A program made the translations under genes and the position numbers. 30,845 bases of DNA from an uncultured Hyphomicrobiales bacterium. GTDB taxonomy: Bacteria; Pseudomonadota; Alphaproteobacteria; Rhizobiales; Kaistiaceae. Below are positions 14,224 to 21,999 of the stretch, in pieces. The stretch spans positions 1-30,845 of the forward strand of contig CAYOUO010000050.1 in the NCBI GenBank assembly GCA_964407155.1. The letters are read 5' to 3'. The notes below the pieces were generated by a model. The model saw nothing but the letters and a program-made list of their open reading frames with translations. It made no database searches and was not told the origin of the DNA. The number at the start of each line of letters is the position of its first letter. Position 1 is the first letter of the stretch.

Positions 14224-18281
<4,058 letters not shown>

Positions 18282-18314
18282 GTTGGACGGGCTCCGGCCG
18301 ATGCGCGGCTCCGG

Positions 18315-19190
18315 TCAGGCACCATTGTGGGTGCCGACAATCCGGTCGCCTTCCAGCTTGGTGAATGGCACGAAGGGAACGACCGCGCCGCCGTAGATAT
18401 CGGAACGGGCGACTGTGAGCGTGCCGTCGGTGCCTTCGTTCTTCACGATCTTCAGGACGTGCTGGGCGCCGGGCGGGCCGACCGGAATCGCCATGACGCC
18501 ACCGGTGCTGAGCTGGCGCAGCAGCGGCGGCGGAACATGGTCGATGCCGCAGGTCACGATGATCTTGTCGAAGGGAGCATTCTCCTCCCACCCGTAGTAG
18601 CCGTCGGCATTCCTGGTCGTGATCGCCTTGTACTCCGTATACCCACGGGCGATCAGCGAATCGTATACACCCCGGGTGCGCGCTGCGAGACCGGGGATGA
18701 TCTCGATCGACCAGATTTTGTCGGTGAGGTTGGAAAGATAGGCCGACTGATAGCCGGAGCCGGTGCCGATCTCGAGCACCTTGTCGCCGCGTCTGACGTC
18801 CAGCGAGTTGGTCATGCGGCCGACGGTATGCGGGCCGGTGATGGTGACCCCGAACCCGATGTCGAGGTGATGCCACTCGTAGGCCTGGGTGAGATTGGCC
18901 TTCGTGACGAATTCCTCGCGTGGCGTCATCAGGTAGGCGCGCTCGTCCTTCGCGTCCCAGACGTCATGGTGGGCGAGCATCGCCTGGTAGCGGTCGAAGC
19001 GCTGGCCGAGGAAATCCGGGTCTTCGCCGCGGTTGGCGACCATCCATGCAATGAAGTTCGCCCGCGAATCGGTCGGAGGCGTCGCGTTCCAGTCGTACGG
19101 CCGGGGAACGTTGGCGCGCGCTACCGCCGGCACAAAGGCCGTAGCGAGCAGGGCGGCCGTTCCCGCTTTCAGGAAATCCCGTCGGTTCAC
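18315..19190 (-). CDS. Tat-signal protein-L-isoaspartate O-methyltransferase homolog (paralog 1)
   Basis: MNRRDFLK Tat motif, h-region and ARA cleavage site. PIMT motifs TITGPH, KVLEIGTGSGYQ, SIEII, DGYYGW..APFDKIIVT, QL..GG.M.IPVG and FVP. Confidence 0.92.
   Translation of the reverse strand: MNRRDFLKAGTAALLATAFVPAVARANVPRPYDWNATPPTDSRANFIAWMVANRGEDPDFLGQRFDRYQAMLAHHDVWDAKDERAYLMTPREEFVTKANLTQAYEWHHLDIGFGVTITGPHTVGRMTNSLDVRRGDKVLEIGTGSGYQSAYLSNLTDKIWSIEIIPGLAARTRGVYDSLIARGYTEYKAITTRNADGYYGWEENAPFDKIIVTCGIDHVPPPLLRQLSTGGVMAIPVGPPGAQHVLKIVKNEGTDGTLTVARSDIYGGAVVPFVPFTKLEGDRIVGTHNGA
18556..18625. repeat. 70-bp perfect inverted repeat, copy A (partner at 20534-20603)
   Basis: Reverse complement equals 20534-20603 exactly (cgatcacgaccaggaat...gacaagatcatcgt); both flanking bases mismatch. 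Confidence 0.92.
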
Positions 19191-19215
19191 GGCGCGCCCC
19201 TCGAATTATCGCAGT

Positions 19216-19749
19216 CTACTTGGGCTTTGCGGTCAGCGTGCCGTAAGCGACGACAGCCTTGTCGTTGTAGCCTGTCATCCAGCTCATGACGACGCCGTCG
19301 GCGCTGCGGTAGAGGGTCAAGCTGCCGTCGAGACATCCCGCCTTGGAGGCCGGATCGAACTTGCCCGTCGTGATCGTTTCGGCGAAGGCCGCATAGTCGC
19401 TGTTGGCGCCGAGCTTGACCAGTTTGCCGGCACAATTCTGGCCCGGATAGCTCGTGTCTCCGCCCTTGGCGGTCAGCGTGATCTCGATCGGATAACCCTG
19501 GGCCCTGCCGACCTGCTGCACCGTGCCCGTCCACGCACCGACCCATGGCTGCGCAGCCGGCTTTGGAGCGACCTTTGCCTTCGCCTTTTTCACGGCCGGC
19601 GCTGCAGCGGGTTGCCCGGTTGCGTCCGGGGCGGGCGCGGTCGTGACGGACGTGTCGGGAGCCGGCGTAGTGTCCTCCGCCCATGCGCTGCCGGCAGACA
19701 TCGCGACCGCCGCACCCAACGCAATACCGGTCAAAAGAATTCGCTTCAT
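19216..19749 (-). CDS. Secreted protein (177 aa): Sec signal, Pro/Ala/Thr linker, beta-rich two-Cys domain
   Basis: MKRILLTGIALGAAVAMSAGSAWA signal, APD..APAP..AAAPAVKK linker, then WVGAWTG...YPGQNC...GCLDG. Start ATG 19749 (TTG 19761 is an alternative). Confidence 0.85.
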   Translation of the reverse strand: MKRILLTGIALGAAVAMSAGSAWAEDTTPAPDTSVTTAPAPDATGQPAAAPAVKKAKAKVAPKPAAQPWVGAWTGTVQQVGRAQGYPIEITLTAKGGDTSYPGQNCAGKLVKLGANSDYAAFAETITTGKFDPASKAGCLDGSLTLYRSADGVVMSWMTGYNDKAVVAYGTLTAKPK

Positions 19750-19830
19750 GGCCTTGTCCAAACCTCCACGCCGATGCCGTTCGCCCGCGGAATCCGGATT
19801 GGGCGCGGGCGCCGCAATTCATCATCGCCG

Positions 19831-19848
19831 TGTAACCGGCATGTTTCA
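19831..19848. promoter_or_regulatory. Palindromic operator copy 1, TGTAAC-N6-GTTTCA
   Basis: tgtaaccggcatgtttca; its reverse complement matches copy 2 at 16/18. Confidence 0.6.
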
Positions 19849-19898
19849 GTTCACCACCTCGCCCCCCGATCCGGAGGGGTCGATGGCAGCGTATCCGG

Positions 19899-19916
19899 TG
19901 AAACAGGCCAGTTACA
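19899..19916. promoter_or_regulatory. Palindromic operator copy 2, TGAAAC-N6-GTTACA
   Basis: tgaaacaggccagttaca, in the same divergent intergenic region as copy 1. Confidence 0.6.
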
Positions 19917-19971
19917 TGCGGTCAGTATAGCTGGTTCCGGGAAACCTCCTTAGCGCTTTCAGGAGAACAGA

Positions 19972-20844
19972 GTGAATCGGCGGCAATTCCTTTTGTCATC
20001 CTCCGCCGCGATGGCGGCGGGCCTTGTTCCTTCACTCGGCCGGGCGGACGTCCCCGTGCCTTACGACTGGAACCTCAATCCGCCGACCGACAATCGTGCG
20101 AACTTCATCGACTGGGCGATGAAGAATCGCGGCGAGGATCCGAAATACCTGGGCGAGCGCTTCGACCGCTATCAGGTTTTGATCGCGAACCACGACATCT
20201 GGGACGACAAGGACAAGCGCGCCTTTCTGCTCACGCCGCGCGAGGAGTTCTGTCGGCCGGCCAACCTGCCACGCGCCTACGCCAATGCCTTTCTCGACAT
20301 CGGGTACGGGGTGACGATTTCGGGCCCTCATCTCGTGGGCCGCATGACCAGCACCATTGACGTGCAGCGCACCGACAAGGTGCTGGAGATCGGTACCGGG
20401 TCCGGCTATCAGTCAGCGTATCTGTCGCATTTGACCGACAAGGTCTTCTCGATCGAAATCATCAAGCCGCTCGCGGAACGCACGCGCGCCACTTATGACG
20501 CGCTGATTGCGCGCGGCTACAACGAATTCAAATCGATCACGACCAGGAATGCCGACGGCTACTACGGGTGGGAGGAGAATGCTCCCTTCGACAAGATCAT
20601 CGTCACCTGCGGCATCGATCATGTTCCGCCACCGCTCCTCCGCCAGCTCAAGCCCGGCGGCATCATGGTCATTCCGGTCGGTCCGCCCGGCTCGCAACAC
20701 GTACTGAAGGTCACCGCGACGCAGGCGGCCGATGGCACGACGACAGTTGCGCGCTCGGACATCTATCACGGCACGGTCGTCAACTTCGTGCCATTCACCA
20801 AGCTCGACGGCGACAAGATCGTCGGAACGCATTTCGGTTCGTAG
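19972..20844 (+). CDS. Tat-signal protein-L-isoaspartate O-methyltransferase homolog (paralog 2)
   Basis: AGGAG RBS and GTG start; MNRRQFLL Tat motif; TISGPH, KVLEIGTGSGYQ and APFDKIIVT. Hand count gives 195/264 (~74%) identity to paralog 1 in the mature region. Confidence 0.92.
   Translation: MNRRQFLLSSSAAMAAGLVPSLGRADVPVPYDWNLNPPTDNRANFIDWAMKNRGEDPKYLGERFDRYQVLIANHDIWDDKDKRAFLLTPREEFCRPANLPRAYANAFLDIGYGVTISGPHLVGRMTSTIDVQRTDKVLEIGTGSGYQSAYLSHLTDKVFSIEIIKPLAERTRATYDALIARGYNEFKSITTRNADGYYGWEENAPFDKIIVTCGIDHVPPPLLRQLKPGGIMVIPVGPPGSQHVLKVTATQAADGTTTVARSDIYHGTVVNFVPFTKLDGDKIVGTHFGS
20534..20603. repeat. 70-bp perfect inverted repeat, copy B (partner at 18556-18625)
   Basis: See copy A. Confidence 0.92.
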
Positions 20845-20937
20845 CGCCGGAGACGGGCACGCCGGACGGCCGAAACCGCGCGACCCCGATTGTGATATCG
20901 TGTGCGCCAAGGCGGCGTGAAACGGGCGAAGGCGTAT

Positions 20938-21999
20938 ATGTCTTTCTGTCGGCGCAGGGCCGGGCTGGCGCTGGCGGCGGTGCTGGCTGCCAATGCGGGC
21001 GGCGCTTTGGCAAGCGGCGCGCCGGATGTCCTCAGACCGCCGTTTCCCCGCGTTTCGCCGGTCGATCACGCGTCCGGCCGGGAAGCCACAATGAAGGATG
21101 CGGATCGCACCAGGCTCGGGCCTCTTGCCGCCGGCCGCAGTACGATCGTTCCGTTCGTCAACTCGCCCTTTCCCTACGAGGGCCTCATCCCGAAAAAGGA
21201 GACGCCATTTCTGGACGTCGCGGAAGGAGGCCGACGGGGGCACACCTCGGTACGTGCCGGGGTCTACTGGGAGGATGAGAGCTACAGCGACCGCAGCGTG
21301 CTGATCGCGTTTCCCCGGGGTTTCGATCTCCGCAAGCCGGCGGTGATGATCGTCTTCCTGCACGGCAACAACGCGCTGCTCGAGCGGGACGTCGTATTGC
21401 GGCAGCAGGTCGTCGATCAGGTCGAGGCGTCCGGCCTCAACGCGGTTCTGGTTGCCCCGCAGCTTGCCCACGATGCGCAGGATTCGAGCGGCGGCAATTT
21501 CTGGCGGCCGGACTTCTTCGCGCGCTTCCTGAAGGAAGCAGCGGTGAAGGCCGCACGGTTTTATGGCGCACCTGCATCCGCCGCAGAGTTCGAGCGCATG
21601 CCGGTCGTCCTGGTTGCCTACAGCGGTGGCTACAATCCGGCCGCTTATGCGCTTGCGCTCGGTGGGGCCGGCCACCGTGTCCATGGGGTCATTCTTCTCG
21701 ACGCGCTTTACGGCGAGGAAGACAAATTCATCGACTGGATCGAGCGCGCGCGGCGCTCGGCGTTTTTCCTCAGCGCGTATTCGCTTTCGTCGGCGGACGG
21801 CAACGGCGATGTCGAAGCGGAGCTCAAGGCCGAGCATTTGGATGTGACCGACACGATGCCCCGCCGCCTCACAGCGGGGACAGTGACGTTTATCGCGGCG
21901 ACCGACCCTTCGATCGTCCACGACGATTTCGTTACTGCCGCGTGGGTGCCACAGCCGCTGGCGTGGGTGCTGTCGCACGTACCAGGGTTTCCGCGCTAG
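20938..21999 (+). CDS. Exported alpha/beta hydrolase-fold protein
   Basis: N-terminal RRR plus hydrophobic segment ending ALA; VFLHG; nucleophile elbow AYSGG; candidate acid LLDAL; candidate His IVHDD. Start uncertain (GTG 20902 is an alternative). Confidence 0.8.
   Translation: MSFCRRRAGLALAAVLAANAGGALASGAPDVLRPPFPRVSPVDHASGREATMKDADRTRLGPLAAGRSTIVPFVNSPFPYEGLIPKKETPFLDVAEGGRRGHTSVRAGVYWEDESYSDRSVLIAFPRGFDLRKPAVMIVFLHGNNALLERDVVLRQQVVDQVEASGLNAVLVAPQLAHDAQDSSGGNFWRPDFFARFLKEAAVKAARFYGAPASAAEFERMPVVLVAYSGGYNPAAYALALGGAGHRVHGVILLDALYGEEDKFIDWIERARRSAFFLSAYSLSSADGNGDVEAELKAEHLDVTDTMPRRLTAGTVTFIAATDPSIVHDDFVTAAWVPQPLAWVLSHVPGFPR

Follow-up and report, generated by a model that had tools for sequence, protein, structure and literature searches.

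Two divergently oriented PIMT genes of an uncultured Hyphomicrobiales bacterium, PIMT-A and PIMT-B, lie 1.9 kb apart and share 72% protein and 73% DNA identity (~27% DNA divergence), and both contain the same perfect 70-nt tract in opposite orientations. The question raised by this locus is how such a tract has come to be identical in two otherwise divergent paralogs. The identity could be the footprint of gene conversion, it could be maintained by an invertible cassette that uses the two copies as crossover sites, it could reflect selection or chance, or it could be an artefact of assembly. Here we analyze the tract in the window, which we define as the whole 30,845-nt stretch of DNA, by comparing it with orthologous loci, with unlinked members of the PIMT family and with metagenome assemblies. 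The sequence comparisons point, with high confidence, to a short and lineage-specific ectopic gene conversion between old, divergent PIMT paralogs as the origin of the 70-nt repeat.

The PIMT locus and its inverted tract

The locus comprises two PIMT genes and three further genes that serve as synteny markers:

15531..18281, minus strand: 916-aa membrane protein, weak SpeE-like domain, encoded downstream of PIMT-A (A-side outer synteny marker)
18315..19190, minus strand: PIMT-A, 291 aa, twin-arginine signal and PCMT domain (PF01135, E=1.8e-39), A-type orthologous group
19216..19761, minus strand: MID, secreted protein of 177-181 aa located between the repeats and co-oriented with PIMT-A (synteny marker for orientation)
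19972..20844, plus strand: PIMT-B, 290 aa, RR signal and PCMT domain (PF01135, E=5.7e-44), B-type orthologous group
20902..21999, plus strand: exported protein of 365 aa, downstream of PIMT-B (B-side outer synteny marker)

The PF01135 scores of PIMT-A and PIMT-B (136 and 151 bits) exceed the curated cut-off of 20.3 bits, and the PIMT alignment to E. coli Pcm 3LBF (E=5e-34) includes the VLEIGTGSGY and APFD.IIVT motifs. The two proteins are nevertheless PF01135 family members and not canonical Pcm, because both score under the equivalog cut-offs of the NCBIfam PIMT models. The TAT_signal profile reaches 21.1 bits on PIMT-A, slightly below its cut-off. Profile searches of Pfam and NCBIfam returned no match for MID and no family match for the 365-aa exported protein, and the 916-aa membrane protein matches NF002956 (E=2e-6) far under the cut-off.

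The tract and the less conserved extension on its 3′ side occupy the following positions:

18556..18625, minus strand: tract copy in PIMT-A, from the second base of codon 189 to the second base of codon 212, encoding ITTRNADGYYGWEENAPFDKIIV
20534..20603, plus strand: tract copy in PIMT-B, in the codons matching those of PIMT-A and encoding the same peptide, ITTRNADGYYGWEENAPFDKIIV
18510..18555, minus strand: soft 3′ extension on the PIMT-A side, codons 212-227, partner of 20604-20649
20604..20649, plus strand: soft 3′ extension on the PIMT-B side, partner of 18510-18555

Direct comparison of the two copies bears out the perfect inverted identity reported in the preliminary description: 18556-18625 and 20534-20603 are reverse complements of each other without a mismatch over 70 nt, and the bordering bases differ on both sides. 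When the A/B pair is scanned in 60-nt windows, the tract alone reaches 100% identity, and third-position identity is 1.0 within it and 0.3-0.75 elsewhere. The 5′ edge is abrupt, with 11 mismatches within the adjoining 27 nt and type-specific residues (YTEYKA vs YNEFKS). The soft 3′ extension accumulates five differences in 46 nt, all of them synonymous, and codons 190-227 as a whole are 95.6% identical between A and B in the window, compared with 77-90% in six other genomes; the extension may be an older or longer portion of the conversion tract. The stretch originally put forward as a contrast, DKVLEIGTGSGYQSAYLS, has the seven synonymous differences in 18 codons that were claimed for it. The accompanying statement that the tract includes uncommon codons holds for AGG (6% of Arg codons in the window's genes) and GCT (7% of Ala) but not for AAT, which at 36% of Asn is not very rare; GGG makes up 15% of Gly codons.

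Tract identity in the PIMT family and at orthologous loci

The observed identity could be explained without recombination if purifying selection acted on a nucleotide-level element (an RNA structure, a binding site or a translational signal), or if codon bias acted on an invariant peptide. The family background lends this explanation some weight. The catalytic motif most conserved in the family lies within the tract, which in PIMT-B falls on the motif aligned with E. coli Pcm 3LBF, and baseline identity is high for that reason: the segment is the most conserved of the PIMT family, with 51-65 of 72 nt shared across 95 unlinked homologs (about 74-90% nt identity) whose exact runs mostly measure 17-50 nt, and long exact runs cluster in it family-wide. 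In a set of 1398 PIMT-family pairs with 70-80% nt identity, the longest exact run has a median of 32 nt and a 99th percentile of 53 nt. A single pair, unlinked and with a run of 71 nt, attains 70 nt or more, yielding an empirical p of ~1e-3 on that null. It had been anticipated that equal codon conservation in unlinked homologs would indicate selection; conservation there is indeed strong, but none of these homologs is identical to the window's tract.

Two further nulls depart from chance more clearly. Under a GENECONV/Sawyer-style permutation over 475 family-polymorphic columns, a check that the preliminary description had recommended, the window's identity run of 24 consecutive concordant sites is significant (p<=5e-5), and the same permutation on the A-B pairs of other genomes returns p = 0.011-0.99. 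Independent draws from codon usage produce the tract identity with P ~1e-6. Judged against these sequence backgrounds, part of the tract identity is background conservation, with 70 nt still standing out as an outlier.

Orthologous loci provide a more direct comparison. The comparison set consists of seven further loci with the same gene order, six of them with both PIMTs complete; at L124 the A-type PIMT alone was recovered, and among non-strain relatives its protein is the nearest (88% aa). The longest exact run between A and B, 70 nt in the window, measures 20, 32, 29, 33, 35 and 17 nt within the six other genomes and 17-50 nt between genomes (n=42). Across the tract, A and B show no differences in the window and 5-13 nt differences in the other within-genome pairs, and the window's tract differs at 5-10 positions from each of 12 orthologs and at 11 from the L124 A gene. 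Quartet site patterns (by genome/by orthology/cross) are 6/0/0, 4/0/0 and 3/0/0 inside the tract and, respectively, 11/94/12, 7/97/7 and 26/65/15 outside it (Fisher p = 3e-6, 5e-5 and 0.017), a phylogenetic discordance in which the window's paralogs cluster by genome within the tract and by orthology beyond it. On each side of the tract, A orthologs form one clade and B orthologs another, and the two genes are therefore old paralogs and not the product of a recent duplication.

No tract site carries a shared derived state private to the window among 14 orthologous sequences: every nucleotide state is also present in at least one ortholog, and the combined haplotype alone is unique to the window. 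We consequently dropped shared derived states as a criterion in favour of permutation, distance and quartet tests. When JGI metagenome contigs were searched with the 51-nt tract core, no exact copy was detected, and exact-protein look-ups of MID and PIMT-A returned no match. We also considered a mosaic PIMT-A, derived from an ancient swap at the tract, when single sequences gave different nearest clades for its N- and C-terminal parts; this candidate was ruled out with six orthologs per type, which place both sides in the same clade. A weak residue of the mosaic signal is left for PIMT-B.

The orthologs also bear on the explanation by selection or chance. Synonymous variation in the tract is free among orthologs, with 24 polymorphic sites within the 70 nt and any pair differing at 5-13 positions, and the tract is therefore under no strict nucleotide constraint; moreover, the window's haplotype is common to its own two paralogs only. 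An RNA element was ruled out by folding of the tract, which shows no excess (z=+0.91), together with an Rfam search that gave no match. The ortholog comparison largely refutes selection or chance without recombination, which we regard as very unlikely. An identity run of excess length, phylogenetic discordance and a lineage-specific haplotype, the features on which conversion tracts are tested, are all found here, and the comparison with orthologous loci lends strong support to the recent intra-locus recombination originally suggested for this locus.

Assembly of the tract and orientation of the interval

The window belongs to a fragmented MAG of 420 contigs, 69% complete and sequenced at a depth of ~8-13x, and at low coverage repeats below the read length can be mis-threaded. 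An assembler that collapsed or cross-threaded the two paralogs would have generated a false identity or a misoriented interval. This explanation can be confronted with Logan k=31 contigs from soil and rhizosphere runs, in which k is shorter than the repeat and the graph is hence the same for either orientation. Logan contigs from several independent runs break precisely at the tract edges, and those of X1-X4 and X7 stop at 20563, having entered the repeat by 30 nt, the break that a k=31 graph should show at a true repeat. The tract constitutes a separate graph node, covered roughly twice as deeply as its flanks, as seen for a 70-nt unitig in X2 (16.2x vs 8-13x) and for a tract 31-mer in X7 (18x vs 8.4x in the flank). 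This two-copy node, bordered by four distinct flanks, recurs in the independent graphs of at least six runs from several studies, and the sole tract variant is one SNP in X7, a synonymous C/T difference between the tract copies of that strain, as neutral decay following conversion would predict. The collapse of the tract that the preliminary description had named as grounds for rejection does not apply to a repeat that independent k=31 graphs show in two copies. The orientation of the window, in turn, agrees with every related locus and with an independent JGI assembly that spans MID, PIMT-A and the membrane protein gene at 99% identity. We therefore assign an assembly artefact a near-negligible probability.

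In an invertible cassette, crossovers between the repeats would flip the interval back and forth, through RecA or through a recombinase supplied in trans, and the identity of the repeats would be preserved by, or for the sake of, this flipping. The geometry proposed for such an event is correct: crossing over between the tract copies would invert ~1.9 kb, swap the N-terminal 189 codons of the PIMTs in frame and re-orient MID and the promoters. Several observations are compatible with it. The 70-nt repeat exceeds the ~40-bp minimal efficient processing segment for RecA recombination (PMC4824099), and tufA/tufB conversions were accompanied by inversion in almost half of the selected events (PMC5485169). 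Four tyrosine recombinases and one serine recombinase occur elsewhere in the 69% complete MAG, as profile matches to PF00589 (contigs C405, C93, C330 and C371) and PF00239 (contig C226). Against this, and as had been stated for the window, neither type of recombinase is encoded on its 30.8-kb contig, C50.

The comparison of orientation among relatives, which had been suggested as a check, runs counter to the cassette. The order membrane protein <- PIMT-A <- MID | PIMT-B -> 365-aa protein is conserved in every related locus recovered, none of which is inverted, and the same orientation and gene order are shared by the window, L093-L103, L105, L124 and the independent JGI assembly. MID homologs (>=55% identity) always have a B-type PIMT on one side and an A-type PIMT on the other, the latter downstream of them; counterparts of the 916-aa membrane protein are found downstream of the A-type PIMT in L093, L096, L097, L124 and the JGI contig carrying P0036, and proteins of 357-364 aa hold the position of the 365-aa protein in L093 and L097. 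A-type N-terminal halves are paired with A-type C-terminal halves in every case, and no A/B chimera was detected among 33 typed homologs (28 AA, 5 BB) from a collection of 5.8 billion proteins, both types being cladal on each side of the tract. The long repeat is itself missing from the six related genomes, where exact runs span 17-35 nt, and is thus not conserved at this locus. With constant synteny and half pairing, the cassette is left unsupported, and we deem it highly improbable.

Two sets of Logan contigs deserve separate mention. In X5, a 267-nt contig runs from the N-terminal flank of B through the tract and into 15 nt whose single diagnostic base (20604) has the A state, as expected at an inversion junction. 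This contig is ambiguous, because its signal amounts to one base and because a k=31 graph does not distinguish the two orientations; a tract extended by at least 15 nt in the X5 strain would explain it equally well. Apparent joints between opposite strands, through matches of 33-38 nt (18200->20831 in X3/X4, 18747->20574 in X1), were rejected as inversions; the X3/X4 contigs are ~87% identical to the window over the part that aligns to it, and the joints are consistent with PIMT genes of relatives that map to the other paralog. There is a slim chance that the repeat, once made by conversion, supports a low-frequency, reversible and RecA-mediated 1.9-kb inversion in this lineage only, with the X5 junction as its first trace. 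A subpopulation would then carry chimeric A_N/B_C and B_N/A_C exported PIMTs, with MID moved to the other operon arm, and the locus would represent an incipient intragenic switch without a recombinase.

Probable gene conversion within an identity island

Gene conversion is the most probable account of how the tract arose. The paralogs have no long islands of near-identity outside the catalytic motif DGYYGWEE.APFDKIIVT, whose invariant residues, together with a strong GC3 codon bias, already yield exact runs of 20-35 nt. Homologous pairing, presumably RecA-dependent, would have begun in this island, and a heteroduplex or synthesis patch would then have copied the sequence of one paralog over the other, halting sharply at the 5′ end, where the paralogs strongly differ, and fading gradually at the 3′ end. 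High divergence is known to shrink recombination patches to small identity islands (PMC4824099). Resolution probably took place without crossover, leaving the interval in its original orientation. The event probably postdates the split from the nearest sampled relatives (82-86% nt identity) and predates the 1-2% strain divergence among soil and rhizosphere metagenomes, and it was presumably selectively neutral.

The closest parallels are found in other paralogs that exchange sequence. In Salmonella enterica, tufA and tufB are also inverted paralogs on one chromosome that undergo non-reciprocal homologous exchange (Hughes 2000; Paulsson et al. 2017, PMC5485169), and there too a crossover would invert the DNA between them; conversion between these genes often comes with inversion (PMC5485169, citing Hughes 2000). 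The tuf genes, however, share ~99% identity across 1.2 kb, are separated by hundreds of kb and undergo homogenisation over their full length, whereas the PIMT genes are 27% diverged and 1.9 kb apart, would have been converted over a 70-nt island (at most ~115 nt) and show no inversion or recombinant product in any sampled lineage (0/33 chimeras, uniform synteny). As in the concerted evolution of rRNA operons (E. coli rrn, PMC8022953), the tract has lineage-specific states common to the paralogs of one genome and not to orthologs. Frequent conversion keeps rrn-type families near-identical overall, in contrast to the single small patch of the PIMT genes, which are otherwise independent and lack a comparable tract in six related genomes. 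Intragenic invertons (10.1101/2023.03.11.532203) and the hsdS "epigenetic invertons" of Type I R-M systems (PMC7672463) likewise bear inverted repeats inside coding sequence, so placed that inversion would recombine halves in frame. Those systems are invertase-catalysed and their repeats recur in related strains; conversely, the contig of the PIMT locus encodes no invertase, the long repeat is not conserved and database homologs include no chimeras.

The tract is an ordinary recombination footprint and gives no sign of a DNA-flipping switch, a clean negative by which the locus is not to be counted as a candidate for phase variation. For scans that search for such switches it also carries a caution, in that the proper null is the same segment in unlinked homologs and not the remainder of the gene. 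The locus would provide a well-controlled natural example of conversion between 27%-diverged paralogs that is confined to a pre-existing identity island, the catalytic motif. The five-gene exported-PIMT cluster is itself kept across several uncultured Hyphomicrobiales lineages, a conservation that is useful for the question of what the cluster does.

The shared tract and its degree of conservation

The window is contig C50 (30,845 bp) of a MAG that is 69% complete and comprises 420 contigs. It contains two paralogous genes for protein-repair methyltransferases (PF01135), PIMT-A and PIMT-B, which point away from one another with a divergent promoter region between them:

18315-19190, minus strand: PIMT-A, 291 aa, PCMT/PIMT family
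19216-19761, minus strand: MID, secreted protein without family, 177-181 aa, located between the two PIMT genes
19972-20844, plus strand: PIMT-B, 290 aa, PCMT/PIMT family

Both PIMT products carry an RR-type signal peptide and an N-terminal extension of ~80 aa. Overall, the two share 72% protein and 73% DNA identity, and 76 of their 202 identical degenerate codons are synonymously different. The perfect inverted identity between them reported in the preliminary description was confirmed: the reverse complement of 20534-20603 equals 18556-18625 exactly over 70 nt, with mismatched bases adjoining both ends. In both genes this tract starts and ends on a second codon position (codons 189 and 212, respectively) and specifies ITTRNADGYYGWEENAPFDKIIV; it aligns with a 22-residue motif of E. 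coli Pcm (3LBF) and hence covers the conserved catalytic core. Third-position identity between the paralogs is 1.0 in the tract and 0.3-0.75 elsewhere. The 5′ edge is sharp, with all nine adjoining codons different, and the 3′ edge is soft, the next 46 nt holding 5 synonymous differences. A separate 18-nt direct repeat (16473-16526, 36 nt apart; GTCGCCGTTCGGGTTGAC / GTCGCCGTTCGGATCGAC) lies within the gene for a 916-aa membrane protein, where it codes for the NGD-type units repeated within an insertion rich in Pro, Ala and Gly.

In the window's genes, AGG accounts for 6% of Arg codons, GCT for 7% of Ala, GGG for 15% of Gly and AAT for 36% of Asn, and the 22 tract codons would agree by independent draws from this usage with P ~1e-6. 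Such a null is too generous, because no other segment of the PIMT family is as conserved as the tract, and an empirical null was therefore derived from 1398 pairs of family members with 70-80% nucleotide identity. The longest exact run per pair has a median of 32 nt and a 99th percentile of 53 nt, and long runs concentrate in the tract's own region. The concern that unlinked homologs might be equally conserved was justified in part: in 95 such homologs from other genomes, 51-65 of the same 72 nt match the window's sequence, but a run of at least 70 nt occurs in only one of the 1398 pairs. The identity of the tract is real, with a significance of ~1e-3 on the family-pair null, not 1e-6. Strict selection on the nucleotide sequence is excluded as its source, because 24 of the 70 positions vary freely among orthologs; the tract also shows no excess RNA structure (folding z=+0.91), and searching Rfam with it returned no match.

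Orthologous loci and probable gene conversion

Homologs of MID were found, and all recovered loci with MID at ≥55% identity share one arrangement, with a gene for a ~360-aa protein and a B-type PIMT in one direction and MID, an A-type PIMT and a gene for a ~900-aa membrane protein in the opposite one. Besides the window, both PIMT genes are complete in six loci (L093, L096, L097, L099, L100 and L102), corresponding to about four additional lineages with A-A DNA identities to the window of 75-82%. A-type and B-type genes are each monophyletic in both N-terminal (codons 27-189) and C-terminal (codons 228-291) trees, and they clearly form separate, old orthologous groups.

The longest exact A-B runs within the six related genomes are 20, 32, 29, 33, 35 and 17 nt, versus 70 nt in the window; between genomes they span 17-50 nt (n=42). 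Over the tract the window's copies show no differences from one another, and both depart by 5-10 nt from every one of 12 orthologous sequences. L124, which supplies the nearest non-strain protein found (88% aa), has an A gene that is 11 nt different from both copies; the other genomes' own pairs differ there by 5-13 nt. Quartet-informative sites in the tract (by-genome/by-orthology/cross: 6/0/0, 4/0/0 and 3/0/0) place the window's paralogs together, whereas beyond it orthology prevails (11/94/12, 7/97/7 and 26/65/15; Fisher p for the inside-outside contrast 3e-6, 5e-5 and 0.017). In a GENECONV-style permutation test (475 polymorphic alignment columns, 20,000 permutations) the window pair showed 24 consecutive concordant sites, a value reached in none of the permutations (p≤5e-5), with p = 0.011-0.99 for the A/B pairs of other genomes. 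This pattern is the classical signature of lineage-specific ectopic gene conversion, which very probably explains the tract. The recent intra-locus recombination put forward in the preliminary description is strongly supported by ortholog distances, quartet sites and this permutation result, and in a sliding-window comparison of the paralogs (60-nt windows) identity reaches 100% at the tract only.

The L099 and L100 pairs (p ~0.011 each, with at most 13 concordant polymorphic sites) hint at small recurring conversions, marginal after correction. At codon 181, part of the LIARGY motif and 9 codons before the tract, both paralogs encode Gly in L099 and Thr in L102, and Ala in all other genomes. 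These lineage-specific, non-synonymous changes, common to both paralogs of one genome, could reflect older small conversions or protein co-evolution, for instance at a shared interface.

The tract in public metagenomes and the orientation of the interval

The region is present as Logan contigs (k=31) in twenty public soil and rhizosphere runs. Contigs from runs X1-X4 and X7 end exactly 30 nt inside the tract, the break that a genuine repeat forces on a k=31 graph, and the tract forms its own graph node at ~2x flank depth (X2, 70-nt unitig at 16.2x versus flanks at 8.4-12.9x; X7, 31-mer at 18x versus 8.4x). Given these breaks and the two-copy node depth in independent runs, an assembly artefact was rejected; the collapse considered earlier gives way to a true two-copy repeat. 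Strains in X3 and X4, 1-2% diverged from the window, also carry the repeat, and the conversion is therefore older than this strain divergence. X7 shows a single synonymous difference between the copies (20565 = 18594, C/T, TAC/TAT; ~8x each following the shared 31-mer at 18x), which looks like the neutral decay expected after conversion. In X5, a 267-nt contig passes from the B N-terminal flank across the tract and continues for 15 nt with an exact match to PIMT-A (20380-20618 and 18541-18625), showing the A state at a single diagnostic base, 20604 (= 18555). Neither X5 nor X7 yielded the inner flank on the A side (18634-18724) at ≥94% identity. With one base as its basis, this join could be explained equally well by a tract extended by 15 nt or more in that strain and by a chimeric junction, or could be a graph artefact.

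It had also been proposed that the repeats serve as crossover sites of an invertible cassette. The geometry is as claimed, since crossing over within the tract would flip ~1.9 kb and swap the N-terminal halves (the first 189 codons) in frame, and a passage in PMC5485169, citing Hughes 2000, states that inversion accompanies almost half of selected conversions at Salmonella tufA/tufB. A functional or recurrent switch is nevertheless very improbable. The k=31 graph is the same for both orientations of the interval. Orientation and gene order are identical between the window and all related loci, and an independent JGI contig with 99% identity, spanning MID, PIMT-A and the membrane protein gene, has the window's orientation. 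Among the best 120 homologs of a 5.8-billion-protein collection, 28 were typed A-N/A-C, 5 B-N/B-C and none as chimeras. The long repeat is absent from the six related genomes and therefore does not belong to the conserved features of the locus. As previously remarked, no tyrosine or serine recombinase gene was found on the contig; the MAG's recombinase profile matches (four PF00589 and one PF00239) all lie on other contigs. The cassette is thus not supported, with at most a small probability of inversion at low frequency.

Family context and proposed mechanism

The tract resides in a five-gene cluster whose conservation extends to several lineages of uncultured Hyphomicrobiales, sampled in metagenomes of soil, rhizosphere and wood (the six complete loci and, partly, L094, L095, L098, L101, L103, L105 and L124):

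15531-21999: 9xx-aa membrane protein (weak SpeE-like domain), Tat-signal PIMT-A, secreted MID; divergently, Tat-signal PIMT-B, ~360-aa exported protein

Tat export of a SAM-dependent repair methyltransferase is unusual in itself, and the exported PIMT family is large, comprising at least 3655 proteins at E≤1e-80 among the 8000 scored candidates sharing most words. Loci L016, L020 and L063 hold tandem same-strand PIMT-family pairs, ~100-165 bp apart and without MID, so that pairing of two exported PIMTs recurs in differing arrangements. The N-terminal part of the B-type clusters with Dongia homologs L041 and L049 (SH-aLRT 85) and its C-terminal part with L020/L016/L006/L069/L019 (SH-aLRT 79), whose own N-terminal parts fall in the A-side clade; this conflict may reflect an ancient swap of modules at the conserved motif, or else 64 columns may simply resolve the tree poorly.

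For diverged repeats, strand invasion requires a segment of near-perfect identity. For RecA recombination in B. subtilis, a minimal efficient processing segment of >40 bp is quoted, and at ~20% divergence the patches that are integrated shrink to just a few nucleotides in length (PMC4824099). Under gene conversion, recombination between PIMT-A and PIMT-B would have begun in the catalytic motif; this motif is the sole island of near-identity in the pair, which would explain why the tract lies there and why it ends at the start of the type-specific residues (YTEYKA in A, YNEFKS in B). Resolution without crossover would have left the interval in place. A direction of the conversion, its RecA dependence and its neutrality are presumed features of this model.

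The tract is a further example of a well-known process, gene conversion, providing a clean and well-controlled case of it and a warning about the choice of nulls in conserved motifs.
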